In this document: positions 2,098 through 33,459 of the stretch, piece after piece | Layout of the letters: every line of letters begins with the position of its first letter | Position numbering within the stretch: the stretch's first letter is position 1 | Assembly (NCBI GenBank): GCA_030390025.1 | Contig: JASTWF010000337.1 | Location: forward strand, 434,001 to 498,000 | From: Squalus acanthias | Lineage: Eukaryota | Direction: 5' to 3' | DNA length: 64,000 nucleotides | The notes under the pieces: generated by a model | Told to the model about the DNA's origin: nothing | Database searches by the model: none | What the model saw: the letters and a program-made list of their open reading frames with translations, nothing else | Made by a program: the position numbers and the translations under genes

Positions 2098-2146
2098 TCT
2101 GTACAGAAGTTCCTCAGGAGTCAGCACCTTCCCGTCTTCATCCAAC
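2098..2146 (-). CDS. SGSM3: SGSM3 coding exon (RUN domain): (R)LDEDGKVLTPEELLYR
   Basis: Minus strand tttttacag|G TTG GAT GAA GAC...TAC AGA|gtgagt; 49 nt; completes the split Arg codon of exon 16365-16435; matches recalled vertebrate SGSM3 sequence. Confidence 0.93.
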
Positions 2147-2258
2147 CTGTAAAAAGGAACCTTCATTAACCGATGGATTCCGAGCATTCAATTACGGGAA
2201 ATAACCACCAACTGCACAGTACCTGCTGGGATTCACCAGCTTGTACAGCACCTGGTAC

Positions 2259-2392
2259 CTCTACATTGCCCCATCAAACACTCCCAGGGCAGGTACAGCA
2301 TGGGTTAGATACAGAGTAAAGCTCCCTCTACACTGTCCCAACAAAGACTGCCAGGGCAGGTACAGCACGGGTTAGATACAGAGTAAAGCGCC
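2259..2392. repeat. ~62-bp minisatellite, left part (split by the LTR element)
   Basis: Unit ~gctccctctacactgtcccatcaaacactcccagggcaggtacagcacgggttagatacagagtaaa, about 2 copies; array resumes at 16117. Confidence 0.9.
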
Positions 2393-2933
2393 CGTTAAAA
2401 TAGTGACCATTTCTAGTTGACCATCTTCCCATCAGACCCTGCCTGTGTACAGCAAGTTAAAATGTCCTTGTGACGTGCTGGCTCTTGACGTTCGAGCTGA
2501 GCTTACAGATAACAGGTTTTCTTTGGGAACCGACTGAGCTTGTAGCTGCAAGAACCAGACACTTACAGATAATAGATGGATAACAACAAGATACGGTCAG
2601 GGACAAGGCCAGTATGTTTGTAATTAGAGACCGACTTATTGGGTATAATTATAGGACGAGTGGTCAGTGGTTGTTCGAGCTCTCAAGACAATCGGAAGTA
2701 GCGCAGCCTAGTGACGGAGGTCGAGCTAATCACCTTGAAGTCCGCGGGGAAACCAGGTTGTATTAATTGCATGTCATTTAATGTAATACTGTAGAACAGT
2801 TGTATAAGAACAATAATGTTATTAGTCAATATATATGAAAGCTTGTTGTTTAAAACCATTCGGGCCAGAGTTTTTGTTGCAGGTCTAACAACCCTTTATT
2901 GCTACAGTAACCACGGAAAGAAATCCACTAACA
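2393..2933 (+). repeat. 5' LTR (541 bp)
   Basis: Direct repeat of 15578-16116; about 8 substitutions and 2 single-base indels by eye; ends CTAACA. Confidence 0.93.
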
Positions 2934-2934
2934 C

Positions 2935-2952
2935 TGGCGGCCCTTGGTGGAC
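2935..2952 (+). promoter_or_regulatory. Primer-binding site, tRNA-Asn-like
   Basis: TGGCGGCCCTTGGTGGAC, 1 nt after the LTR; 15/18 match to TGGCGTCCCTGGGTGGGC, the recalled complement of the vertebrate tRNA-Asn 3' end. Confidence 0.7.
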
Positions 2953-3559
2953 TGGAGTTAAAGGTTTAAAAATAGGCGAACATAAAGGGAAAAGAGGACC
3001 AATTGGTTGTGACCGAGTTATTGAAAGGTAGCCAACCCCTCGAGCATAAACACGTGGAAGGATCGGTAGGGTCGTGCACACCCTTGGTAGGGGAAGCAGA
3101 AAACCTAGGCAGTCTGAGTGAAAGTGAGTGTGAATGAGTGAAAGTTTACTGACCTATGAATGTTTAACAGAGCTAAAAGCAGTTCAACTCTCTGTAGTCT
3201 TGTCTTTGATTAAAATGCCTAAAATACTTTCAACATTAATGTCTTTTCTACAAGTATATGCTGTTTTAAACTTGCTAATTGTTTTCTCTATGTATGTATA
3301 CACACGTGGATTATTTTTGAGATGCTTTGAATCATGTTTTTGGTCTTGAACTGATTTAAAGGGTGTGAATGTTCCTTGGGATCGTGACCAGGGAATACAA
3401 TGTAAACATTTGGCACTTTGAGTTCCTAACCCATTACACGGATCAGTATTTCCAAGGAGCATGATAGTGTGAATATCGTTGAGTATGTTCATTTCAATTT
3501 AAGATTGTGTGCCTGAACTGGGGAAAACTTTGTGATTTACATTTTAAGTTAAAGGTACT

Positions 3560-5810
3560 GGTTGGAGCTGCACTCCAGGCAAGTGGAGAGTGTTCCATCA
3601 CACTCCTGACTTGTGCCTTATAGATGGTGGAAAGGCTTTGGGAGTCAGGAGGTGAGACATTCGCTGCAGAACACCCTGCTCTTGTTGCCACAGTATTTAT
3701 GTGGCTGGTCCAGTTAAGTTTCTGGTCAATGGTGACCCCCAGGATGTTGATGGTGGGGGATTCGGCGATGGTAATGCTGTTGAATGTCAAGGGACGGTAG
3801 TTAGACTCTCGCTTGTTGGAGATAGTCATTGCCTGGCACTTGTGTAGTGCGAATGTTACTTGCCACTTATCAGCCCAAGCCTGAATGTCGTTCAGGTCGT
3901 GCTGCATGCGGGCATGGACTGCTTCATTATCTGAGGAGTTGTGAATGGAACTGAACACTGTGCAATCATCAGCGAACATCCCCACTTCTGACCTTATGAT
4001 GGAGGGAAGGTCATTGATGAAGCAGCTGAAGATGGTTGGGCCTGGGACACTGCCCTAAGGAACTCCTGCAGTGATGTCCTGGGGCTGAGATGATTGGCCT
4101 CCAACAACCACAACCATCTTCCTTTGTGCTAGGTATGACTCCAGCCAGTGGAGAGTTTTCCCCCTGATTCCCATCGACTTCAATTTTACTGGGGCTCCTT
4201 GATTCCACACTCGGTCAAATGCTGCCTTGTTGTCAAGGGCAGTCATTCTCGCCTCACCTTTGGAATTCAGCTCTTTTGTCCATGTTTGGACCAAGGCTGT
4301 AATGAGGTTGGGAGCTGAGTGGTCTTGGCGGAACCCGAACTGAGCATCGGTGAGCAGGTTATTGGCGAGTAAATGCTGCTTGATGACACTGTCAATGACA
4401 CCTTCCATCACTTTGCTGATGATTGAGGGTAGACTCATGGGGCGGTAGTTGGCTGGGTTGGATTTGTCCTGCCTTTTGTGGACAGGACATACCTGGGAAA
4501 TTTTCCATTTTGTCGGATAGATGCCAGTGTTGTAACTGTACTCGAACAGCTTGGCTAGAGGCACGGCTAGTTCTGTAGCATAAGTCTTCAGCACGACAGC
4601 CGGGATGTGTCGGGGCCCATAGCCTTTGCTGTAGTCAGTGCACTCAGCCGTTTCTTGATATCACGTGGAGTGAATCGAGTTGGCTGAAGACTGGCTTCTG
4701 TGATGGTGAGGTCCTCAGAAGGAGGCCGATATGGATCATCCACTCGGCACTTCTGGCTGAAGATGTTGCAAACGCTTCAGCCTTGTCTTCTGCACTTGCG
4801 TGCTGGGCTCCACCATCATTGAGGATGGGGATGTTCATGGAGCCGCCTCCTCCTCCCGTTAGTTGTTTAATGGTCCACCACCATTCACAACTGGATGTGG
4901 CAGGACTGCAGAGCATTGATCTGATCAGCTGATTGCAGGATCGCTTAGCTTTGTCTGTAGCATGCTGCCTCTGCTGTTTAGCATGCATACAGTCCTGAGT
5001 TGCAGCTTCCCCAGGTTGACACCTCATTTTTAGGGACACCTGGTGCTGCTCCTGGCATGTTCTTCTGCACTCCTCATTGAACCAGGGCTGGTTCCCTGGC
5101 TTGATGATAATGGTAGAGTGAGGGATTTGTGTCAGCCATTGCCAAGTTGGCAGCACCCTTGCCTCTGAATCAGAAGGTTGTGGGTTGAAATCCCACTCCA
5201 GGGACTTGAGCACAATAATCGAGGCCAACATTCCAGTGCCATCTTTCGGTGGGACAGGACATACCCAGGGATGGTGATGGAGGAGTCTGGGACACTGGCT
5301 GAAAGTTATGATTCTGTGAGTATGACTATGTCAGGCTGTTGCTTGACTAGTCTGTGGGACAGCTCTCCAAATTTTGGCACAAGTCCCCAGATGTTAGTGA
5401 GGAGGACTTTGCAGGGTCGACTGGGCTGGGTGTGCCGTTGTCGTGTCCGAATCCGGTGCCGAGATTGAAGCCGGGTGGTCCGTCCGGTTTTATGCTTATT
5501 ATTGTTTTTCATAGTGGTTTTTTACAACTGGGTGGCTCATTAGGCCATTTCAGAGGGCAGTTCAGAGTCAACCACATTGCTGTGGGTCTGGAGTCACACA
5601 GACCAGATAAGGACGGCAGATTTCCTTCCCATTAGTGAACCAGATGGGTTTTTACGACAATCCGATAGTTTCATGGTTACCATTATTGATACTAGCTTTT
5701 TATTCCAGATTTATTTAATTAACTGAATTTAAATTCCCCAGCTGCCGTGGTGGGATTTGAACTCATGTCTCTGGATCATTAGTCCAGGCCTCTGGATTAC
5801 TAGTCCCGTA
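3560..5810 (-). mobile_element. Decayed APE-RT LINE (CR1/Jockey-group-like, distinct from the main CR1 family) with tRNA-like 5' head
   Basis: VLLTNIWGL...PDIVILTES (APE start), DKSNPANYRP, AFDRVW, FADDCT; B-box GTTCAAATC on the minus strand near 5754-5762. Confidence 0.85.
5130..5250 (+). mobile_element. tRNA-derived SINE fragment nested in the LINE
   Basis: gcacccttgcctctgaatcagaaggttgtgggttgaaatcccactccagggacttgagcac; same family as 14372 and 34533. Confidence 0.75.
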
Positions 5811-5814
5811 AACA

Positions 5815-6097
5815 CAGGATTTTTTTTAACTTGTCCCATTGCCATCTCCTTTTGCCTGCACCATCATCCCTTTTGTCTCCCAATCTCTCCTGCCTTCCAT
5901 CCTATCACAGACCATCCCTTTTGTTCTTTCCTCCCCTCCCCCCTTTCCCTGCCCCTACACTTGCTTAAAAACCTGTTCCATCTCCAACTTTTTCCAGTTC
6001 TGACGAAGGGTCATCGACCAGAAACGTCAACTCTGTTTCTCTCTCCACAGATGCTGCCTGACCTGCTGAGTATTTCCACCATTTTCTGTTTTTATTA
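5815..6097 (+). mobile_element. Penelope-like element terminal segment containing a hammerhead motif
   Basis: ctgacgaagggtcatcgaccagaaacgtc followed by cacagatgctgcctgacctgctgagt; related partial copies near 1678-1765 and 27250-27360. Confidence 0.65.
5996..6032 (+). ncRNA. Minimal type I hammerhead ribozyme motif (possibly degenerate)
   Basis: AGTT-CTGACGA-ag-GGTC atc GACC-a-GAAA-c-GTC-AACT: stem I AGTT/AACT, both core boxes, stem II, GUC triplet. Confidence 0.55.
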
Positions 6098-6839
6098 CAA
6101 GTTACAGTTGCTGGTATAGATCAATTTGAATGTCTCCAAAGCACCTTGTTTTAATTGGATAACAGCTATAAAGATTGCTATCGCTTTATACAGTTTAAAT
6201 TAAAGATGTGTGGTCTTGTTTTAAATCAATTCGAATGTTTACAAAGCACTGTTTTCTTCATTTGGTTACTGGAAGTCTGAGACTTGCTATTGTGATTGAC
6301 TCCGCCCCCACCCAGGTAATCAGTAATCAGAATTTGTAAACTGGGCCGAGAGAAAATGCACCAAGTTAATCTATGATGGAATAAAGGAGAGAGGGAAAGA
6401 TTCTTCCCCTTTTCTACTGTCACAAGCTGCAGGAGATCTTTTGTTTCCACCGTACTGTCTCGAAGAGCCTGTGTGAATGTTTCAGAGCCCACAAGCTGTG
6501 GGAGGTTCCACCATTAACCCTTTTGTGTAGAAATGTTACAAAGATTTTGTTTAGATCTGAATACTAATATTTTCTTCAGTTATATTCAGTTTTTAGTCCT
6601 TTGAAGAAATAACAAATTTATTTTTAATTTTCTGGGTTTTTGTAAGCATGTGCTATTTTGATATTTTTATCTGTTGTGCAGTATGTTTAGTTAATAAAAT
6701 ATTGGCCTGAATTAAATTGGAATTATTGAGGTTAACTAATCTATTAAATTGTGAAAACCAGATTTTCATTATGGCCAGTGAAATTCTGATTACTGTAAAT
6801 TATCTGTGATTCTATGTGGAGGTATCTGATGTGATGAGA

Positions 6840-9779
6840 GGTAGAGGTAAACGAATATGATATGATTGGGATTACAGAAACATGGCTCCAGGGTGACCAA
6901 GGCTGGGAACTCAACATCCAGGGGTATTCAATATTCAGGAAAGATAGGCAAAAAGGAAAAGGAGGTGGGGTAGCATTGCTGGTTAAAGAGGGGATTAACA
7001 CAATTGTAAGGAAGGATATTAGCTCTGATGATGTGGAATCTGTATGGGTAGAACTGAGAAATACCAAGGGGCAGAAAACATTAGTGGGAGTGGTATACAG
7101 ACCCCCAAACAGTAATGCGGAGGTTGGGGATGGCATTAAATGGGAAATTAGAGAAGCGTACAATAATGGTACAGCAGTTATCATGGGTGACTTTAATCTA
7201 CATATAGATTGGGCTAACCAAATTAGTAACAGTACTGTGGAGGAGGAATTCCTGGAGTGTATACGGGACAGTTTCCTGGACCAATATGTCGAGGAACCAA
7301 CTAGAGATCAGGCCATCTTAGACTGGGTATTATGTAATGAGAAAGGATTAATTAGCAATCTTGTTGTGCGAGGCCCCTTGGGTCGAAGCGATCATAATAT
7401 GATAGAATTCTTCATTAAAATGGAGAGTGAAGTAGTTGACTCGGAGACTAGGGTCCTGAATTTAAATAAAGGAAACTACGATGGTATGAGGCGCGAGTTG
7501 GGTAGGATTGATTGGGGAATGTTACTCAAAGGGCTGACGGTGGATAGCAATGGCAAACATTCAATGATCGCATGGATGAACTGCAGAATTTGTTCATCCC
7601 AGTTTGGCATAAAAATAAGACAAAAAAGGTGACTCAACCGTGGCTAACAAGGGAAATTAGGGATAGCATAAGATCCAAGGAGAGGACATATAAATTGGCC
7701 AGAAAAAGCAGTAAACCTGAGGATTGGGAGCAGTTTAGGATTCAGCAAAGGAGGACAAAGGGATTAATTAAGAGGGGGAAAATAGAGTATGAGAGTAAAC
7801 TTGCAGGGAACATAAAAACTGACTGTAAAAGCTTTTGTAGATATGTGAAGAGAAAAAGATTGGTGAAGTCAAACGTAGGTCCCTTGCAGTCAGAATCAGG
7901 GGAATTTATAATGGGGAACAAAGAAATGGCAGGCCAATTAAATACATACTTTGGTTCTGTCTTCACAAAGGAGGACATAAATAACCTCCCAGAGATGTCA
8001 GGGAACATAGGGTCTAATGAGAGGGAGGAACTGAAAGAAATCAGTATTTGTAGGGAAATGGTGTTAGCGAAATTGACGGGATTGAAGGCCGATAAATCCC
8101 CAGGGCCTGATAATCTACATCCTAGGGTACTTAAGGAAGTGGCTCTAGAAATAGTAGATGCATTGCTGGTCATCTACCAAAATTCGATAGATTCTGGAAC
8201 GGTACCCATGGATTGGAGGGTAGCTAATGTTACCCCACTATTCAAAAAAGGTGGTAGAGAGAAAACGGGGAATTATAGACCGATAAGCCTGACATTGGTA
8301 GTGGGGAAAATGCTAGAGTCCATTATAAAAGATGTAATAGCAGAGCACTTGGAAAACAGTGACAGGATCGGACAAAGTCAACATGGATTTACAAAAGGTA
8401 AATCATGCTTGACTAATCTACTGGAATTTTTTGAAGATGTAACTGGTAAAATAGATAAGGGAGAACCAGTGGATGTGGTGTATTTGGACTTTCAGAAGGC
8501 TTTCGATAAGGTCCCACATAAGAGATTAGCGTGTAAAGTTAAGGCACATGGGATTGGGGGCAAGGTATTGACTTGGATAGAGAACTGGTTGGCAGACAGA
8601 AGGCAAAGAGTTGGAATAAACGGGTCTTTTTCCGAGTGGCAGGCAGTGACTAGTGGGGTACCGCAGGGATCGGTCCTAGGACCCCAGCTATTCACAATAT
8701 ATATTAATGATCTAGACGAGGGAACTAGATGTAATATCTCCAAGTTCGCAGACGACACAAAGCTGGGTGGGCGTGTGTGCTGTGAGGAGGATGCCGAAAA
8801 ACTCCAGCATGATTTGGACAGGTTGGGTGATTGGGCAGAATCATGGCAGATGCATTATAATGTGGATAAATGCGAGGTTATCCACTTTGGTGTCAAAAAC
8901 GGGAAGGCAGATTATTATCTGAATAGCAATAGATTGGGAGAAGGGGAAGTGCAACGAGACCTGGGTGTCCTTGTGCACCAGTCGCTGAAGGTAAGCATGC
9001 AGGTGCAGCAGGCGGTTAAGAAGGCAAATGGCATGTTGGCCTTCGTAGCGAGAGGGTTCGAATACAGGAACAAGGATGTCTTGCTGCAGTTGTACAGGGT
9101 ACTGAGTTTAGATGATCAGCCATGATCTCATCGAATGGCGGAGCAGGCTCGAGGGGCCTACTCCTGCTCCTATCTTCTATGTTTCTATGTCTATGTACAG
9201 GGCCTTGGTGAGACCACACCTTGAGTATTGTGTGCAGTTTTGGTCGCCTTATCTGAGGAAGGATGTTCTTGCCATGGAGGGAGTGCAGCGAAGATTCACC
9301 AGGCTGATACCTGGGATGGCAGGAATGACGTATGAGGAGAGATTGGGTCGATTGGGCTTATACTCGCTGGAGTTTAGAAGAATGAGAGGGGATCTCATTG
9401 AAACTTATAAAATTCTAACAGGACTAGACAGACTAGATGCAGGAAGGATGTTCCCGATGGCTGGGGAGTCCAGAACCAGGGGTCACAGTCTAAGGATAAG
9501 GGGTAAGCCATTTCGGACAGAGATGAGGAGGAATTTCTTCACCCAGAGAGTGGTGAACCTGTGGAATTCTCTACCACAGAAGGCAGTGAAGGACAATTCA
9601 ATAAATATATTCAAGAAGGAGTTAGATATATTTCTTAAGGCTAAAGGGATCAAGGGATATGGGGAAAAGGCAGGGACAGGGTAATGAATTTGGATGATCA
9701 GTCATGATCTCATTGAATGGCAGAGCAGGCTCGAGGGGCCGAATGGCCTACTCCTGCTCCTATCTTCTATGTTTCTATG
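6840..9779 (+). mobile_element. 5'-truncated CR1 LINE with near-complete ORF2 (APE + RT) and 3' tail
   Basis: ORFs 6862-7632, 7572-9125, 9112-9684 (ITETW, GDFN, SDHN, YLDFQKAFDKVPH, PQGSVLGP, FADDTK); one frameshift and one 103-bp insertion; tail ttctatgtttctatg; candidate TSD atgaga (6834-6839 / 9777-9782). Confidence 0.95.
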
Positions 9780-11253
9780 AGACGATCACAGTTCAAAAAT
9801 TGCTAGTTTTGAATTTCTTAAATGTTTAATGATTTGAAGTGGATGAGATGTTAATGTTGAGTGTAATTGACGTGGTTTTGTGCCTTTAAGATTTTGGGAC
9901 ATTTGAGGTGATTCTGCTTGTTTCATCACCTTGGTTGTATTGGAATGTGATAGCGGTCAGTAGACTGACAGCACCTTTAGATCATGTGACTGACTGGTCA
10001 GAAAAAAGTACCGGGAAGAACAAGAATGATTAAAGGATCTCCTGCTATCTCTATGACAACAATATGGAAAAATCTTGTGGTTGGACACCAAATGCTTTGA
10101 AAACAATTGGAGTTTAATTTGGAAAAATAAAAAGGCTGTCTTTCCTGATGAAATTTTTTTTGAAAAGCTAATAGTGACGTAACTAATGATTTCTGCTGTT
10201 TTAACGGATTTTCAAATCCTAATGATGGAAAACAAAACGTTCGGTAGGATCTCTGTGCAAGTTTTAAAGGTACAAAGACTTTGGAAAAAAAACAAAATGG
10301 AGTTTGGCTCTTTTTCAGTCGGCAAAGTTTAAAAAAATGTGAAGTAGCGCAAGTCCACGCGTCTGACGATATGTTCTGATAAAACATGCAAAGACGTTAA
10401 CCCTTTCCACCGGCAGCTGTTTTTAATTCACCAAAACGTCTTTTGTGTTGCTGAATGTAAATATATATCCTGGGCATTATTAAATTTAAAGTTTCTTAAT
10501 TTAAGTGGGTACGTCGCCATGGTGATAGAAGGAAATCATGAATTGGCAAATTAACCCGTTGGGCTCTCTTATTTAAGAGCCGCAATGGATTCTCTGGTTT
10601 TTTTCAAAAGAGTTTTCTGGACTCTATGAATGTTGAGGGCGTAGCAAGGGATCCAGCAGTTTTAAGAATTTAACACCTTATCCGCAGACAGCAGCAGATA
10701 TCAAATGTCACAGCGTGGCAACGATCTGGACTAAGACTTTGCCTTTCCAAAGATTCGGCATTAACCCATTCAGGGTCGTTTGTTATGTTCCAAGACAGAG
10801 TGCTTGTGGGTGTTGGTGGGGGCGGGGGGGGAGGGGTGGCGAATGTGGGAGTTACCTCCAAAACTAATTGCAAAGCACTTCTGTCTCCAATGTAAAACCA
10901 CCAAGCCTGGGCATCATTTGTTTCTGAAATTGGAACATAGAAGATAAATTGATCTGAGTTGCTGTTACACTCACGCACTCAAGAAGGGAAATTTTACCTG
11001 AAGTTTAAGGGGACGATCACATATTTTTTTTAAAAGAATGCAATCTAGGTGGTTCCTGCCCAGTGCTGTGTATCAAGAAAAAAGATCCTTTGGAGAAATA
11101 AAATTGAACATTGACAAGTACTGTCAGTCCAACAACACTGCTCTTTGGATTTGCGATAATTGTGAAATGACAAAATGGAGTCAGGCACAATATAGCGGGT
11201 TATTTTGGAAAATAAAAGGCCCAAGAGACGGTTCGGTTAAGTAAAATAAACAA

Positions 11254-13165
11254 ACTTGCTGTACCTGCATGTTAACTTTCTGTGATTCATGTACAAGTAC
11301 ACTCAGGTCCCTCTGAGTGCAAACATTTCCCAGTCTCTCACCATTCAAAAAATATTCTGCCTTTTGTCTTTCCTACCAAAGTGGATAACTTGACACTTCC
11401 CCACATTGTATTCTATTTGCCATGTTCTTGCCCACTCAGTCAACCTGTCTATATCTCTCTGCAGTCTCTTTGCATCCTCCTCACAGCTTACTTTACCACC
11501 TAACTTTGTATCAGCAGCAAACTTGGATACGTTACACTCAGTCCCTTCATCTAAGTCATTAATATAGATTGTAAATAGCTGAGGCCCAAGCACTGATCCG
11601 TGTGGCACCCCGCTAGTTACAGCCTGCCAACCGGAAAAAGTTCCGTTTATTCCTACTCTGTTTTCTGTCCATTAACCAATCCTCAATCCATGCTAATATA
11701 TTACTCCGAATCACGAGTCCTAATTTTGTGTAATAACCTTATCGAATGCTTTTTGAAAATCCAAATACACTACATCAACTGGTTCCCCCTTATCCATCCT
11801 ACCAGTTACATCTTCAAAAAAATCTAACAGATTTGTCAAACATGATTTCCCTTTCTCTGCCTAATCATATTATGATTTCTAAGTGCCCTGTTACCACGTC
11901 CCTAATAATAGATTCAAGCATTTTGCCTACTACTGATGTCAAGCTAACTGGCCTATAGTTCCCCGTTTTTTCTCTTCCTCCTTTCTTAAATAGCAGGGTT
12001 ATGTTTGCTACCTTCCAATCCTTGGGGACTGTTCTAGAATCTAGGGAATTTTGGAAAATTGATACCAATGCATCCACTATTTCTGCAGCTACCTCTTTTA
12101 AAATCCTAGGATGCAGGTCGCCAGGTCCAGGGGATTTGTCGCCACTTAGTACTGGAGAAATTAATGGGACTATGTCTTTACTTATACTGATTTCTTTAAA
12201 TTCCTCATTCTCTCTAGACCCTTGGTTCCCCACTATTTCCAGAATGTTTTTTGTGTCTTCTAGCATGAAGTCAGATACAAAGTATTTGTTTAATGTCTCT
12301 GCCATTTCCTTATATGCCCATTATAATTTCTCCTGTCTTTGCCTCTAACGGGCCCACGTTTACTTTAACTAATCTCTTCCTATTTACATACTTATAGAAA
12401 CGGTTACAATCTGCTTTTATGTCTCTTGCTAATTTACTCTCATATTCTTTTTTCTCTTTCCTGATCAATTTCTTGGTCCTCCTTTGTTGAATTCTAAAAT
12501 CCTCCCAATCCTTACTACTCTTTTTGGCAACATTATAAGCCTCTTCCTTTGATCTAATACTATCTTTAACTTCACTTGTTAGCCACGGTTGGACCACTTT
12601 TCCTGTGGGGTTTTTGTGCCTTAAAGGAATGTATATTTGTTGTAAATTATGTATTAATTTTTTAAATGCTAGCCATTGCTCATCTACCGTCATACATTTT
12701 AATGTAGTTTCCCAATCTACCTTAGCCAACTCGCCCCTCATACCTACGTAGTTTGCTTTGTTTAGATTTAAGACCCTAGTTTCAGAGTTAACTAAATCAC
12801 TTTCAAACTCAATATAAAATTCTATCATATTATGGTCACTCTTCCCTAAGGGCCCCTTTACTACAAGGTTATTAAATAACCCTTTCTCATTGCACAATAG
12901 TAGATCTAAAATAGCCTGTTCCCTAGTTGGTTCCTTAACATACTGATCTAGAAAACTATCTTGTATACATTCCATGAACTCGTCCTCCATACTATTACTG
13001 CAAATTTGGTTTGCCCAGTCTATATGTAGATTAAAGTCCCTCATGATTACTGTATTACCCTTGTTACATGCGCCTCTAATTTCCTGATTTATACTTTGCC
13101 CTACATTACAACTACTGTTTGGGGACCTATAAACAACTCCCATCAATGTTTTCTGCCCCTTGCTG
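11254..13165 (-). mobile_element. CR1 LINE ORF2 fragment with internal deletions
   Basis: ORFs 12310-13200, 11865-12305 and 11345-11608 are homologous to the 6840 element. Confidence 0.9.
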
Positions 13166-13430
13166 TTTGTTATGGCACGGATATGTGGTCGGAAGCTCAT
13201 TTCAGGGTCAAATATGTCACCAAGGTTGTGAACAGTCTAGTTCAGCCTCAGACAGATGCCAGGGAGAGGGATGGAGTCGGTGGCTAGGGAACGGAGTTTG
13301 TGGCGGGGACTGAAGAAAATGGCTTTGGTCTTCCCAATATTTAATTGGAGAAAATTTCTGCTCATCCAGAACTGGATGTCAGACAAGCAATTTAGAGACA
13401 GTGGAGGGGTCAAGAGAGGTGGTGGTGAGG
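13166..13430 (-). mobile_element. L2-type LINE fragment
   Basis: Reverse complement resembles 17900-18150 and 40060-40300. Confidence 0.75.
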
Positions 13431-13499
13431 TAATAATGGGTGAATTAGAATCAATCCAAAGGGGTTAGGGAAAAGATGTGTGAGGGCACCCATGAGTAA

Positions 13500-13720
13500 C
13501 ATAACATAAGAACATAAGAAATAGGAGCAGGAGTAGGCCATTTGGCCCCTCGAGCCTGCTCCACCATTTAATGAGATCATGGCTGATCTGATCTTGGGCT
13601 CAGCTCCATTTTCCTGTCCGCTCCCCATAACCCATCACTCCCTTATTTGCAACAAAAAAAAATCTGGGAAAATTCCTCTGCCACCCATCTAGGCGATCGA
13701 ACCAGGAGATCACTCTGGCC
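13500..13720 (-). mobile_element. CR1 3'-end fragment
   Basis: cataagaacataagaaataggagcaggagtaggcc tail signature. Confidence 0.75.
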
Positions 13721-14371
13721 CTTTTGCATAGACTGCCCCCTTGTCCTGATTCTTATCTCATGGATCAGGAGTTGTGCATGCTTTATGCTGTGGCAATGCT
13801 GGTTAGAGGCATCTTGGGACCAAATAAACACCAGTAACAATGGGTTTTGATTCAACACCCTCTCTCTTTGCCTTCTCCAAATCGACTGGCTTCCCCTGTA
13901 ACATACACCTAAAGGTGTGGGTCTCCGCCTCAACCTCCCTTCTTAGTAACGTGTATAGATTTGTTCTCTGCAAAGAAATAATTGCAGAGGCCTGTCTTAA
14001 TTATGCCTTTCACAATGCTGAATCTGCACCCACTTGTGCTGCGATTCTGATATGTTTCAGGTTTTTGGGATCTCTGTATCTAGTCATTGGACAAGGTTTG
14101 GAGGCTACCCACCAGAAGGCTTGGAATTTTGATTTGAATCCAGCTGTTGCTTAAATGGATCAGGTGAAAGCTCCCGAACTACAATTGGATCATTTGACTC
14201 CACAAATATCGACTGCATAAATACAGGTGCAAGAAACCACTTTATCTAAACCATATCTTGTGCTGTAGCAACAATTCCAAACCTCTGCTCACTTGTGTTT
14301 GTGATACAGGTGAACACCAGTTTGGAATTGTTCACAGCAATTAAGTGTACAATGGGTCTCAGAACTAAAAT

Positions 14372-14525
14372 AGTTAGCTGTGGCTCTGTGGGCAGCACTC
14401 TCACCTCCGAGTCAGAAGGCCGCGGGTTCAAGTCCCACTCCAGAGACCCGAGCACAAAAATCCAGGCTGACACCCCAGTGCAGTGCCGAGGGAGTGTTGC
14501 ATGGTCAGAGGTGCCCTCTTTCAGG
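14372..14525 (+). mobile_element. tRNA-derived SINE, 5' part (Deu-domain type)
   Basis: A-box-like tggctctgtgg, B-box ggttcaagtcc, then tactgaggga-like core. Confidence 0.8.
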
Positions 14526-15565
14526 TAACTTAAATCATCTGGGTACAATTCACCAAGAGTTATCAATCTGGTATCAATGTATATTCGAGTGAAAGCCAGG
14601 AAATTGTAAGTGTGACAAGTTAATTGATAGCTTTCTCCTGGAGATTTTTGTGTCCTTGCCTATACTGAACAATAAGGAAACTGCATTTGAGAGCATGGCC
14701 ACTATCGAGACATAAGCAAAGACCTCCACACCGCCCCCCCGATCTTTTAATAAGATAACCTGAAATGTCCAAGAAAGGTTTGCATCTGATGTCACGTGTG
14801 GCATGATCTTGGGATGTGTGTGTGCAAATGTGATAAGTTACATGTGAGGCAACTAGCATGCGGAAATGCTCAGTTACTTGACAATAGCACAACATGAAAT
14901 GGTTAATGTGGCTCAGGAGAGTGAGAAAACCTTTAATCAAGGCACTGACATATGTTCCATAGAGAAACCAACCTTTTTATGAAACAATCAGGATAGAGTT
15001 AAACACAGAGGGATTGAAATTGAAGTAAAGAGGGACATAGAATTTGGATTTACGAAATCCGTGGGTTGGGTTCCTTTGAGTTAACAATGAAATTGGAACA
15101 ATTGAGGGCTAGGGAGAAATAATACTTAGCAAGAATTATCCACAAAATGGATAAGGGTAAAGGGAGTGCTGAGAATCTTTGAAGTCCATGATTTCTCGAT
15201 AATATGGGACACTGTAGCTTTCTGTACAATGTATTATGATCTTCTCTGTCTGGATCATGATGTGTAGTATTGGGCAAATGAGACTTGGATTAGTGATCAC
15301 GTACATGCTGCTTGGACAAGCCCTTAAAAACTGAAGAGGGAAACAGATCCCGGTTAGAGGAGAGCTCTATCAAATATGCTGTGTAAAGGACGATTACCAA
15401 CAGCTGAAATAAAAGGGGCTCGTTGGCACAATATGTATATGGTACGTTTGTTTATGTGAATGTAACATCAACCGACTGTAAACTCAAGGTGATCTAAGGT
15501 GAGGCCAGAAAGGAAATTCACGGGTAAAAGTGAAAGTCGACCCAGTGTGGTTCCAACTCAGGTTC

Positions 15566-15577
15566 AAAAGGAGGGAA
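15566..15577 (+). promoter_or_regulatory. Polypurine tract
   Basis: AAAAGGAGGGAA directly abutting the 3' LTR. Confidence 0.85.
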
Positions 15578-16116
15578 TATTAGAATAGTGACCATTTCTA
15601 GTTGACCATCTTCCCATCAGACCCTGCCTGTGTACAGCAAGTTAAAATGTCCTTGTGACGTGCTGGCTCTTGACGTTCGAGCTGAGCTTACAGATAACAG
15701 GTTTTCTTTGGGAACAGACTGAGCTTGTAGCTGCAAGAACCAGACACTTACAGATAATAGATGGATAACAACAAGATACGGTCAGGGACAAGGCCAGTAT
15801 GTTTGTAATTAGAGACCGACTTATTGGGTATAATTATAGGACGAGTGGTCAGTGGTTGTTCGAGCTCTCAAGACAATCGGAAGTAGCGCAGCCTAGTGAC
15901 GGAGGGCGAGCTAATCACCTTGAAGTCCGCGGGGAAACCAGGTTGTATTAATTGCATGTCATTTAATGTAATACTGTAGAACAGTTGTATAAGAACAATA
16001 ATGTTATTAGTCAATATATATTAAAGCTTGTTGTTTAAAACCATTCGGCCAGAGTTTTTGTTGCAGGTCTAACAACCCTTTATTGCTACAGTAACCGCGG
16101 AAAAAATCCGCTAACA
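15578..16116 (+). repeat. 3' LTR (539 bp)
   Basis: Repeat of 2393-2933; starts TATTAG, ends CTAACA; ATTAAA at 16020-16025. Confidence 0.93.
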
Positions 16117-16326
16117 GATCCCTCTACACTGTCCCATCAAACACTCCCAGGGCAGGTACAGCACGGGGTTAGATATAGAGTAAAGCTCCCTCTACACTGT
16201 CCCATCAAACACTCCCAGGGCAGGTACAGTATGGGTTAGATACAGAGTAAAGCTCCCTCTACACTGTCCCATCAAACACTCCCAGGGCAGGTACAGCACG
16301 GGGTTAGATACAGAGTTAAACTCCCT
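16117..16326. repeat. ~62-bp minisatellite, right part
   Basis: About 3.3 copies of the same unit as 2259-2392. Confidence 0.9.
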
Positions 16327-16364: not shown

Positions 16365-16435
16365 CTGTATGTTTTACACAGCACTAGTCGAGAATACACC
16401 GAGTCGAAGTCTCGTTCCACCTCCTTACCAGCAGC
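16365..16435 (-). CDS. SGSM3: SGSM3 coding exon: [23 protein letters not shown](R)
   Basis: ccatag|GCT GCT GGT...TAC AG|gtacat; 71 nt; phases fit both neighbouring exons. Confidence 0.95.
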
Positions 16436-16842: not shown

Positions 16843-16995
16843 CTCTTCAATAAAAAGCCAGGGATGGCAGGGGCCACCGAGAATAGATGGTTTCTTCAAA
16901 CCCTGCTCAAATATTGCCTTAAGTGCTGGACACAGTGATCCTCGGACCAGGTCTGTTACTGCTTCTGTTACCGAATCATCTCCAGCCACCGAGTA
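16843..16995 (-). CDS. SGSM3: SGSM3 coding exon: [51 protein letters not shown]
   Basis: tttgtag|TAC TCG GTG...GAA GAG|gtaatg; 153 nt, phase 0-0. Confidence 0.95.
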
Positions 16996-17078: not shown

Positions 17079-17685
17079 TGGAACAGGGTGAGGATGGGAT
17101 GCCTGTATTCAGCACACTATATGGAACAGGGCGACGATGGGATGCCTGTACCCGGCACACTATATGGAACAGGGTGAGGATGGGATGCCTGTACCCGGCA
17201 CACTATATGGAACAGGGTGAGGATGGGATGCCTGCATTCAGCACACTATATGGAACAGGGTGAGGATGGGACGCCTGTACCCGGCACACTATATGGAACA
17301 GGGTGAGGATGGGATGCCTGTATTCAGCACACTATATGGAACAGGGCGAGGATGGGATGCCTGTATTCAGCACACTATATGGAACAGGGCGAGGATGGGA
17401 TGCCTGTACCCGACACACTATATGGAACAGGGCGAGGATGGGATGCCTGTATTCAGCACACTATATGGAACAGGGCGAGGATGGGATGCCTGTATTCAGC
17501 ACACTATATGGAACAGGGCGAGGATGGGATGCCTGTACCCGATACACTATATGGAACAGGGCGAGGATGGGATGCCTGTATTCAGCACACTATATGGAAC
17601 AGGGCGAGGATGGGATGCCTGTACCCGACACACTATATGGAACAGGGCGAGGATGGGATGCCTGTATTCAGCACACTATATGGAA
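17079..17685. repeat. 43-bp minisatellite, about 14 copies
   Basis: ggaacagggYgaggatgggatgcctgta(ttcag|cccgR)cacactatat. Confidence 0.95.
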
Positions 17686-20199: not shown

Positions 20200-20920
20200 A
20201 CACTGCACAGACTTCAAGAGCCCACCAGTACCATGCTCAATGACCATTCACTGACCGCTGCACAGACTCCGAGAGCCCACCAGTACTGTGCTCAATGACC
20301 ATTCACTGACCGCTGCACAGACTCCGAGAGCCCACCAGTACCGTGCTCACTGACCGCTGCACAGACTCCGAGAGCCCACCAGTACCGTGCTCACTGACCG
20401 CTGCACAGACTCCGAGAGCCCACCAGTACCGTGCTCACTGACCGCTGCACAGACTCCGAGAGCCCACCAGTACCATGCTCACTGACCGCTGCACAGACTC
20501 TGAGAGCCCACCGGTACCGTGCTCACTGACCATTCACTGACCGCTGCACAGACTCTGAGAGCCCACCGGTACCGTGCTCAATGACCATTCACTGACCGCT
20601 GAACAGACTCCGAGAGCCCACCAGTACCGTACTCAATGAACATTCACTGACCGCTGCACAGAGTCCGAGAGCCCACCAGTACCGTGCTCAATGAACATTC
20701 ACTGACCGCTGCACAGAGTCCGAGAGCCCACCAGTACCGTACTCAATGAACATTCACTGACCGCTGCACAGAGTCCGAGAGCCCACCAGTACCGTACTCA
20801 ATGACCATTCACTGACCGCTGCACAGACTCCGAGAACCCACCAGTACCGTGCTCAATGACCATTCACTGACCGCTGCACAGACTCCGAGAACCCACCAGT
20901 ACCGTGCTCAATGACTATTC
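20200..20920. repeat. 39/51-bp minisatellite, about 15 copies
   Basis: ctgaccgctgcacagactccgagagcccaccagtaccgtgctca with an optional extra atgaccattca-type segment. Confidence 0.95.
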
Positions 20921-26778: not shown

Positions 26779-26828
26779 CTCTTTACTTCGTTCATCCAGA
26801 ACCTCCACAAATTTCGCAGGAAACCAGC
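26779..26828 (-). CDS. SGSM3: SGSM3 coding exon (SH3 C-terminal part): (G)WFPAKFVEVLDERSKE
   Basis: ttccgacag|GC TGG TTT CCT...AAA GAG|gtgaat; 50 nt; completes the Gly codon of exon 33405-33459. Confidence 0.95.
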
Positions 26829-31512: not shown

Positions 31513-31514
31513 GG

Positions 31515-32143
31515 GAGACGGAGATGGGGGGAGGGGGAAGAGGGGGAGGAGGAGGGGGAAGAGGGGGAGGGAAAGAGGGGGAGGGAAAGAGGGGGAGGGA
31601 AAGAGGGGGAGGGAAAGAGGGGGAGGGAAAGAGGGGGAGGGAAAGAGGGGGAGGGAAAGAGGGGGAGGGAAAGAGGGGGAGGGAAAGAGGGGGAGGGAAA
31701 GAGGGGGAGGGAAAGAGGGGGAGAGGGGGAGGGAAAGAGGGGGAGGGAAAGAGGAGGCGGGGGAAAGGGGGGAGGGGGAGGAGGGGAGGGGGGGGGGGAG
31801 AGGGGGAGGGGGGGAAGAGAGGGGAAGAGGGGGAGGGGAGAGGAAGGAGGGGGGGAAGAGGGGGAGGGGAGAGGAAGGAGAGGGGGGAGAGTGAGAGAGG
31901 CAGAGGGGGGAGAGCGAGAGAGGCAGAGGGGGGAGAGAGAGAGAGAGGCGGAGGGGGGAGAGAGAGAGAGAGGCGGAGGGGGGAGAGAGAGAGAGAGGCA
32001 GAGGGGGGAGAGAGAGAGGCAGAGGGGGAGAGAGAGAGAGAGAGGCAGAGGGGGAGAGAGAGAGAGAGGCAGAGGGGGAGAGAGAGAGAGGCACAGAGGG
32101 GGAGAGAGTTAGGGAGGCAGAGGGGGAGAGAGAGAGGCGCAGA
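31515..32143. repeat. Polypurine simple repeat: (GGGGGAGGGAAAGA)n grading into GA/GGCAGA repeats
   Basis: About 15 perfect 14-mers followed by degenerate G/A repeats. Confidence 0.95.
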
Positions 32144-32501
32144 GGGGGGAAAATTCAGTTGGTTGCGCCTCCCGTTAGCGCCTTAAGAGGGTGCTAATGG
32201 TGCGCAAAGCAACTAGCGCCCAGCGCGGCGATGTTTGCGTCGCTCGTGAAATTGACCAGACATTTTGCGGCGGCACTAAACACTACCGCCACGATCTCCT
32301 GTGCCCGCAGATCGTGACGTCAGTCGAGTGCGCAACGCCCCAGAGCAGATATTGAGTGGCGCCCCCTGCCTTACCGCCTGCCGCTAGCAACGACAGGTTG
32401 AGGGGAGCGTTTTGCAGTCGGGAAGGGACTGGGGGAGCGCTATTTAAAGGCAACTGCTTCCTGCCTTTTTTTGTCTGTGACATTTTTGAACCACGCATTC
32501 T

Positions 32502-33404: not shown

Positions 33405-33459
33405 CTCGCAGCCCGTTCAGCTCTCCCACCCAGCAATGCTCATCCTTCTGTGATATAAT
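33405..33459 (-). CDS. SGSM3: SGSM3 coding exon (SH3): IISQKDEHCWVGELNGLR(G)
   Basis: ctctttcag|ATT ATA TCA CAG...CGA G|gtgagt; 55 nt. Confidence 0.95.

Follow-up and report, generated by a model that had tools for sequence, protein, structure and literature searches.

The element and its insertion site

We analyzed a stretch of 64,000 nucleotides of Squalus acanthias (contig JASTWF010000337.1 of assembly GCA_030390025.1, positions 434,001 to 498,000), here called the window, in whose coordinates all positions are given. Positions 2393-16116 hold an element of 13,724 nt that an earlier note on this DNA had described as a retroelement with long terminal repeats (LTRs), possibly an endogenous retrovirus (ERV), that keeps its cis-acting signals and has no recognizable gag or pol. 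We find that it is a genuine LTR retroelement, an identification supported by the LTR pair, the primer-binding site (PBS), the polypurine tract (PPT), the target-site duplication and the existence of related dispersed copies that include the interior. The case that the earlier note had named as fatal to this view, two independent insertions of solo LTRs, is excluded because of the PBS, the PPT, the duplication and the multi-copy interior. The coordinates of all the features are collected in Table 1.

In a global alignment of 2393-2933 with 15578-16116 we counted 10 differences over 541 columns (8 substitutions and 2 gaps). The resulting identity of 98.2% is in agreement with the value of about 98% given before for repeats of 541 and 539 bp. 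Both LTRs end in CA. The 5' LTR opens with CGTTAA and the 3' LTR with TATTAG, each start being one change away from TG. Of the perfect 6-bp inverted repeat TGTTAG...CTAACA described in the earlier note, the CTAACA end is present in both LTRs, whereas the TGTTAG start, and with it the perfect repeat, exists only as a composite of the two starts actually present. In the 3' LTR an ATTAAA motif follows 32 nt after TATAA. Inside the LTR there is also an 11-nt direct repeat (2502-2512 and 2562-2572, 60 nt apart), possibly an old enhancer-type duplication. The PPT, AAAAGGAGGGAA at 15566-15577, lies directly before position 15578 as had been claimed, and purine runs of at least 12 nt end at just 26 of the approximately 12,600 positions within the element (0.2%).

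The element interrupts a 68-bp tandem array detected with Tandem Repeats Finder (TRF). The intact units of this array read GCTCC at the split point in all three unit boundaries printed, and each copy of the putative duplication is one change away from this motif. By parsimony the duplication is 5 bp long; it would be 6 bp if the first base of the 5' LTR had been lost.

The primer-binding site

The PBS begins with TGG at 2935, 1 nt past the 5' LTR. This is the position reported in the earlier note, and the site itself turned out to be imperfect, with 2-3 mismatches in 18 bases. We searched for tRNAs with a pattern composed of the complement of the PBS and the tRNA T-arm, the open positions of which were in part our own choice, and the tRNAs retrieved are not those of the host. 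This pattern fetched 140 loci, and ARAGORN called 125 pattern-bearing tRNAs in 120 of them. The great majority (116 of 125) were tRNA-Asn(GUU), matching the PBS at 15 of 18 positions in 114 cases and at 16 of 18 in 2, the remaining ones being 8 tRNA-Arg and 1 tRNA-Tyr. To judge from these matches, the primer is likely tRNA-Asn.

Self-priming, known from Tf1-type Gypsy elements and involving an LTR complement of about 11 nt, was considered and discarded because the longest perfect complement of the PBS in the LTR is only 5 nt (the best 11-mer pairs at 7 of 11 positions). The region of the LTR end and the PBS folds no better than shuffled sequences (z +1.07). ARAGORN found no tRNA genes in the window.

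The interior and its nested insertions

A large part of the element is made of later insertions. The nested blocks total about 8,029 nt, match other repeats of the window and carry the endonuclease and reverse transcriptase (RT) domains of long interspersed elements (LINEs). What is left amounts to 4,615 nt in six pieces with a G+C content of 34-43%, very close to the 4.5 kb of AT-rich native interior estimated before. The nested LINE at 6840-9779 belongs to what we take to be the CR1 family. Its open reading frame is broken by a copy of a LINE 3' tail of 103 nt (9091-9193), and contigs skip from 9090 to 9194 in all four of the sequencing runs described in the next section.

The earlier note had seen no protease, RT, RNase H or integrase motifs in the native interior, and our searches bear this out. 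When the five large interior pieces were scanned with Pfam in every frame (30 in all, stops being read as X), no family had an E value below 0.08. In the same database the nested LINEs yielded RVT_1 and endonuclease matches with E values from 1e-10 to 1e-33. The frames of these pieces showed no depletion of stops beyond dinucleotide shuffles (lowest p 0.05 in 10 strand-piece tests), nor did the length of the open frames exceed that of shuffles (longest 132 codons, lowest p 0.06), the 108-codon frame at 13828-14154 reaching p 0.06. Three frames compared with large protein collections by a word-seeded search returned nothing at E <=1, searches of PDB with interior frames gave unrelated weak matches only, an Atlas search with the 108-codon frame reached a top score of 0.82 that falls inside the shuffled range, and Rfam produced a single chance match (E 0.68). 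An exhaustive HMMER search with one frame retrieved 2 proteins near E 1e-3, both of them translations of tandem repeats, and these were judged to be due to chance, as were ankyrin matches in PDB with E values of 0.012-0.019. By eye, interior piece 3 has bits that resemble gag (a Gly-rich patch and a Cys/His run) and pieces 5-6 have bits that resemble env (Cys-rich and hydrophobic stretches). Neither found support in the protein, PDB or shuffle tests. Judging from these searches, pol is very likely absent from the element. No recognizable gag or env was found with Pfam, the large protein collections or PDB, searches in which decayed genes of distant origin could be missed.

Related copies in public sequencing runs

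Our search listed 22 sequencing runs, of which 20 contain the stretch wholly or partly; these 20 carry 8 organism labels and come from 9 studies, and no RNA run is listed among them. In 15 of the 20 the share is <0.2, and this wider spread is not evidence. Contigs of four runs were placed on 2100-15577: X1 and X3, from two studies of one organism (A), X6, from a second one (B), and X10. X10 comes from organism A and may be RNA, which is a guess, and nothing about expression can be read from its low cover; it is, like X6, among the runs with a share <0.2. Seven contigs of X1 match the interior with 12 differences in 2,768 nt at a depth of 10-13, and therefore organism A holds this very locus.

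Relative to a single-copy sequence, the summed contig depth in X1 was about 90x for the LTR, 22x for interior piece 1, 34x for piece 2, 2.7x for 13800-14249 and 85x for the 3' interior. The same regions gave, in this order, 66, 30, 12, 1.4 and 24 in X3 and 73, 15, 31, 0.9 and 31 in X6. Such sums are a rough guide and no copy number, which counts against reading them as a measure of family size, though the contrast is large. Besides, three paralogue-like contigs differ from the window by 11-12%, and a paralogue-like contig begins to match at 6097, at the edge of interior piece 2. Because of the large contrast in depth and the paralogue-like contigs, the LTR, the leader and the 3' interior belong to a dispersed multi-copy family that is present in two organisms. 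In each of the three DNA-type runs the depth of 13800-14249 is close to that of a single copy, and this region is hence not demonstrably shared by the whole family; it may be host DNA that was captured, or it may be missing from most copies. One contig of X3, aligned at 14211-14417, spans the junction between piece 5 and the nested head of a short interspersed element (SINE); it has 17 differences and 20 gaps, its first 271 letters are unmatched, and it hints at a second locus. Among viral and metagenome contigs none matched the start of the LTR exactly, and a pattern joining AACA to the Asn-type PBS had no match in viral contigs.

The explanation that we favor, and regard as reasonably probable, is that the element is a dead and old copy of a multi-copy LTR family without genes, likely mobilized by a helper, and that gene conversion likely restored the near-identity of its two LTR cores. 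A possible but clearly less probable explanation is that a single autonomous ERV or LTR retrotransposon was internally deleted or decayed, losing its genes after insertion, and that the gene-less form never spread. The uneven depth of the interior, with 13800-14249 near single-copy, looks as if copies differed by deletions, and an old age would leave time for them; in zebrafish, too, gene-less elements make up the older class (PMC8672886). On the other hand, no trace of pol is seen at any junction, though the LINEs nested later were recognized at once, and a multi-copy leader and 3' interior fit either explanation. Spread of the family in gene-less form remains our preferred reading.

Age of the insertion and similarity of the LTRs

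Reverse transcription and integration yield LTRs that are identical to their very ends and a perfect target-site duplication. In this element precisely these parts have changed: both TG starts, both copies of the duplication and 2-3 of the 18 bases of the PBS, and at least five blocks are nested inside. The differences between the LTRs are concentrated in the same places. Six of the 10 fall in the outer 27 nt of the alignment (6 columns at its start and 21 at its end), and the probability of finding 6 of 10 within 25 nt of an end is 9e-5 (binomial). Counting substitutions only, there are 5 in 26 positions at the ends versus 3 in 513 in the core (Fisher P 9e-6), with boundaries between ends and core that were picked after seeing the data.

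A second line of evidence comes from organism B. Four of its contigs, at depth 2.6-3.9, differ from the window at 106 of 2200 positions (4.8%), whereas the two LTRs of the window differ from each other by 0.6% in their core. At five positions (3345, 9845, 9849, 9879 and 9886) all the X1 and X3 contigs placed differ from the window and organism B agrees with it, and these shared private letters point to an orthologous copy. In organism A, at 2630, where both LTRs have the same letter, the agreeing depth in X1 is 23.6, about that of two single-copy loci, and none of the 5 organism-B contigs has this letter. At a divergence of 4.8% the LTR core would be expected to carry 24.7 substitutions, and only 3 are observed (P 3e-8), a figure that holds if the insertion predates the split of the two organisms. 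Within organism B, the residual depth for the letter of the window was at least that of the contig at 12 of the 14 variable sites spanned (sites among 40 of 1,639).

Some details of this comparison tell against it. At 2 of the 14 sites spanned the letter of the window is missing in organism B; at 2573 the agreeing depth in X1 (71.6) exceeds that of two LTRs, with 0 of 15 organism-B contigs agreeing; and among the contigs listed for organism B none bridges the flank and the LTR, which makes the orthology something we infer, as the contigs could come from a close paralogue. With the differences clustered at the ends and the core far below the 4.8% divergence of organism B, gene conversion of the LTRs after insertion is likely the best explanation of the near-identical cores. 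The identity of 98% probably does not give the age of the element, and likely understates it. An old age with conversion likely holds both if the family spread without genes and if the genes were lost after insertion.

Taken at face value, the 98.2% identity would indicate a young insertion, with an LTR distance of 1.5%, possibly of a decayed and LINE-laden copy re-mobilized as an RNA of 13.7 kb. The X3 contig with 17 differences across the junction of piece 5 and the SINE, which hints at a second SINE-bearing copy, would fit such a scenario. We consider it improbable: change is greatest at the ends, in the duplication and in the PBS, and a recent re-mobilization would leave the ends and the duplication perfect; in addition, the organism-B contigs share private letters at a divergence of 4.8%. 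Even less credit can be given to an artefact of the assembly, in which repeats were collapsed or cross-polished, or to the two LTRs being separate insertions. A core of high identity between ends of low identity is what mis-polishing could produce. However, the core keeps 3 substitutions and one gap, the independent run X1 has two-copy depth at 2630 for the letter common to both LTRs, and the PBS, the PPT and the split tandem array are found exactly where a single element predicts them. An old insertion with later conversion remains the preferred account.

Conversion between LTRs is a known phenomenon, reported for about 25% of plant LTR pairs (PMC7251063) and also among human LTRs (PMC4921805). 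Its effect on dating can be seen by applying the formula of Han 2015, with its assumed rate of 2.2e-10 per site per year (PMC4422223). By hand arithmetic and at this assumed rate, the LTR distance of 1.5% corresponds to about 34 million years, and the organism-B distance of 4.8%, if orthologous, to at least about 110 million years. The mutation rate measured for sharks is low, 7e-10 per generation (PMC10587355). This is a useful warning, as published shark ERV ages are based on the LTR distance alone.

A model for the origin of the element

The history that we propose for a gene-less family mobilized by a helper would run as follows. From established LTR-element biology, an RNA would be transcribed from the 5' LTR and packaged by the Gag and Pol of the helper. 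Minus-strand DNA would be primed at the PBS by a host tRNA, likely tRNA-Asn, and the PPT would prime plus-strand DNA. The integrase of the helper would then insert the element into the 68-bp tandem array with a staggered cut of 5 bp. After insertion, lying antisense in an intron, the copy would have gained the at least five nested blocks while its termini, duplication and PBS decayed, and gene conversion would have reset about 510 nt of the LTR core.

Several observations weigh against this model. One tRNA-Arg(CCU) equally reaches 16 of 18 matches on the PBS. No helper element was found, so that of the earlier proposal, a non-autonomous or deleted family mobilized in trans, the first part fits the blank protein searches and the second is a supposition. 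Contigs of LINEs swamp the joints (9,082 more) and the loose ends (27,559 more), making unreadable any gag and pol that other copies may have where this one is deleted. Only 3 of the 30 frames were compared with the large protein collections, and genes of a distant lineage (gag, env or accessory ones) could have gone unnoticed if heavily frameshifted.

The host gene and neighboring repeats

The element lies in an intron of 14,218 nt, of which it takes up 13,724. The earlier statement that it is antisense within an intron of SGSM3 is confirmed as regards the orientation by minus-strand exons with canonical splice sites on both sides. The name of the gene is our assumption, the matches computed being weak ones to the RUN domain; presumably the exons at 26779-26828 and 33406-33459 encode an SH3 domain, which is how they read to us. 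With the insertion, an intron of about 0.5 kb became one of 14.2 kb, which illustrates clearly how an LTR element together with nested LINEs can swell shark introns.

The window is also rich in tandem repeats. For the 68-bp unit into which the element is inserted, contig depth adds up to millions in each of the three DNA-type runs, indicating an extremely abundant repeat. The host gene has minisatellites in further introns, at 17079-17685 (43 bp), 20203-20920 (55 bp) and 31513-32150 (14 bp). Positions 40950-64000 form an array of about 23 kb that resembles a satellite, with units of 21, 25, 46 and 71 bp and a strong strand skew.

Table 1. Features of the LTR retroelement and of its surroundings in the window (strand given as + or -; a dot marks features with no orientation).
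Feature	Position	Strand	Remarks
Host exon downstream of the element	2098..2146	-	Canonical splice sites
Tandem array, left half	2258..2392	.	TRF 2258-2393, period 67; 90-92% match to 16119-16326
Target-site duplication, 5' copy (putative)	2388..2392	+	GCGCC; intact unit GCTCC
5' LTR	2393..2933	+	541 nt; CG start, CTAACA end; TATA-like TATAA at 2803
PBS	2935..2952	+	Best match tRNA-Asn(GUU), 15-16/18
Interior piece 1 (likely leader)	2934..3559	+	Multi-copy, no domain
Nested block: broken APE-RT LINE with SINE-like and other repeat fragments	3560..6097	-	RVT_1; 79-94% matches in the window; very high depth
Interior piece 2	6098..6839	+	Multi-copy, no domain
Nested CR1-type LINE (endonuclease and RT), broken, with short repeat tail	6840..9779	+	ATGAGA direct repeat at the junctions
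Interior piece 3	9780..11253	+	No domain; short stretches of very high depth near 10488 and 10936
Nested block: broken CR1-type LINE and second repeat fragment	11254..13430	-	
69-nt interior piece	13431..13499	+	Unique within the window; outside the domain scan
Nested LINE 3'-tail fragment	13500..13719	-	13500-13644 repeated in the window; nesting of 13645-13719 presumed
Interior piece 5	13720..14371	+	108-codon open frame 13828-14154 without relatives
Nested SINE-like head	14372..14525	+	79% to 5146-5239; high depth
Interior piece 6	14526..15577	+	3' part multi-copy; no domain, no true protein relative
PPT	15566..15577	+	AAAAGGAGGGAA; adjoins the 3' LTR
3' LTR	15578..16116	+	539 nt; TA start, CTAACA end; TATAA at 15988 and ATTAAA at 16020 (putative roles)
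Target-site duplication, 3' copy (putative)	16117..16121	+	GATCC
Tandem array, right half	16119..16326	.	TRF 3.1 copies, 93% matches
Host exon upstream of the element	16365..16435	-	Canonical splice sites
Host exon with start of the RUN domain	16843..16995	-	Weak: Pfam E 0.078, Iporin E 0.03
Further host exons	26779..26828, 33406..33459	-	Upstream of the RUN-domain exon

Comparison with known elements

As far as its sequence allows, the element belongs to the LTR retroelements in general, and without pol it is not placeable as ERV, Gypsy or BEL. There is no RT to place outside the nested LINEs and no recognizable env, so that an assignment to the ERVs cannot be made. Our search of the literature gave no description of this LTR family, with subscription journals and repeat databases mostly outside its scope. 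It is probably an unlisted shark repeat family that may already be catalogued in Dfam or Repbase.

The architecture of two LTRs without genes is in itself ordinary. According to the zebrafish survey (PMC8672886), the layout is common: gene-less elements with two LTRs make up 36.5% of about 3,315 elements, being the commonest structure and on average the oldest class. They resemble the shark element in having two LTRs of about 500 nt and no recognizable gag, pol or env. They differ in belonging to another host group, and the shark copy has been enlarged by nested LINEs and SINEs that total 8 kb. BHIKHARI of zebrafish (Bik-1 and Bik-2) and ENS-1/ERNI of chicken are likewise non-autonomous LTR families, lacking both pol and env (bioRxiv 10.1101/2024.03.25.586437). 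Unlike the shark element, in which no frame exceeds 132 codons, they are described in that source as young and with one long gag open reading frame (617 aa in Bik-1). An assignment to Lokiretrovirus or to BHIKHARI calls for such a gag frame and/or an F-like env (PF00523; PMC7947760), and was rejected, as there is no long or stop-depleted frame and no Pfam match. In the main text of the lokiretrovirus paper neither a PBS nor a duplication is described.

Foamy-like ERVs of fish, amphibians and the elephant shark have a tRNA-Asn PBS in guppy, Amazon molly and newt (PMC5210030, PMC5512871). The best match of our PBS to tRNA-Asn agrees with the primers of the group (tRNA-Lys, -Asn or -Thr), a feature that is not group-specific. 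The GGGTG expected at their junction of PPT and LTR (PMC5210030) is replaced here by GGGAA followed by the LTR, there is no foamy pol, and the duplication is of 5 bp and not of 4 bp as in two foamy-like cases (PMC5512871). We therefore discarded this affiliation too. As for the published cases of LTR conversion (PMC7251063, PMC4921805), they have in common with ours an LTR identity above the true age, in our case inferred from differences clustered at the LTR ends of one shark locus and from a second organism.

The mode of life that we suggest has well-known counterparts. The MaLR and ERV-L elements of mammals and the large retrotransposon derivatives (LARDs) of plants are LTR elements with a non-coding or gag-only interior that are moved in trans, and MaLR and ERV-L elements make a 5-bp duplication. 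Their working mode would be the same as that of the shark element, with different hosts and primer, the likeness being one of description only. A bolder version, which we put forward as a speculation with little probability, is that a gene-less shark LTR family primed by tRNA-Asn spread >100 million years ago on an unsampled retroviral lineage, and that its 4.6-kb interior is a functional non-coding RNA or what is left of genes unlike those in current libraries. If true, this family would be the cartilaginous-fish counterpart of MaLR, and frequent conversion of LTRs would make the dating of shark ERVs several-fold too young.

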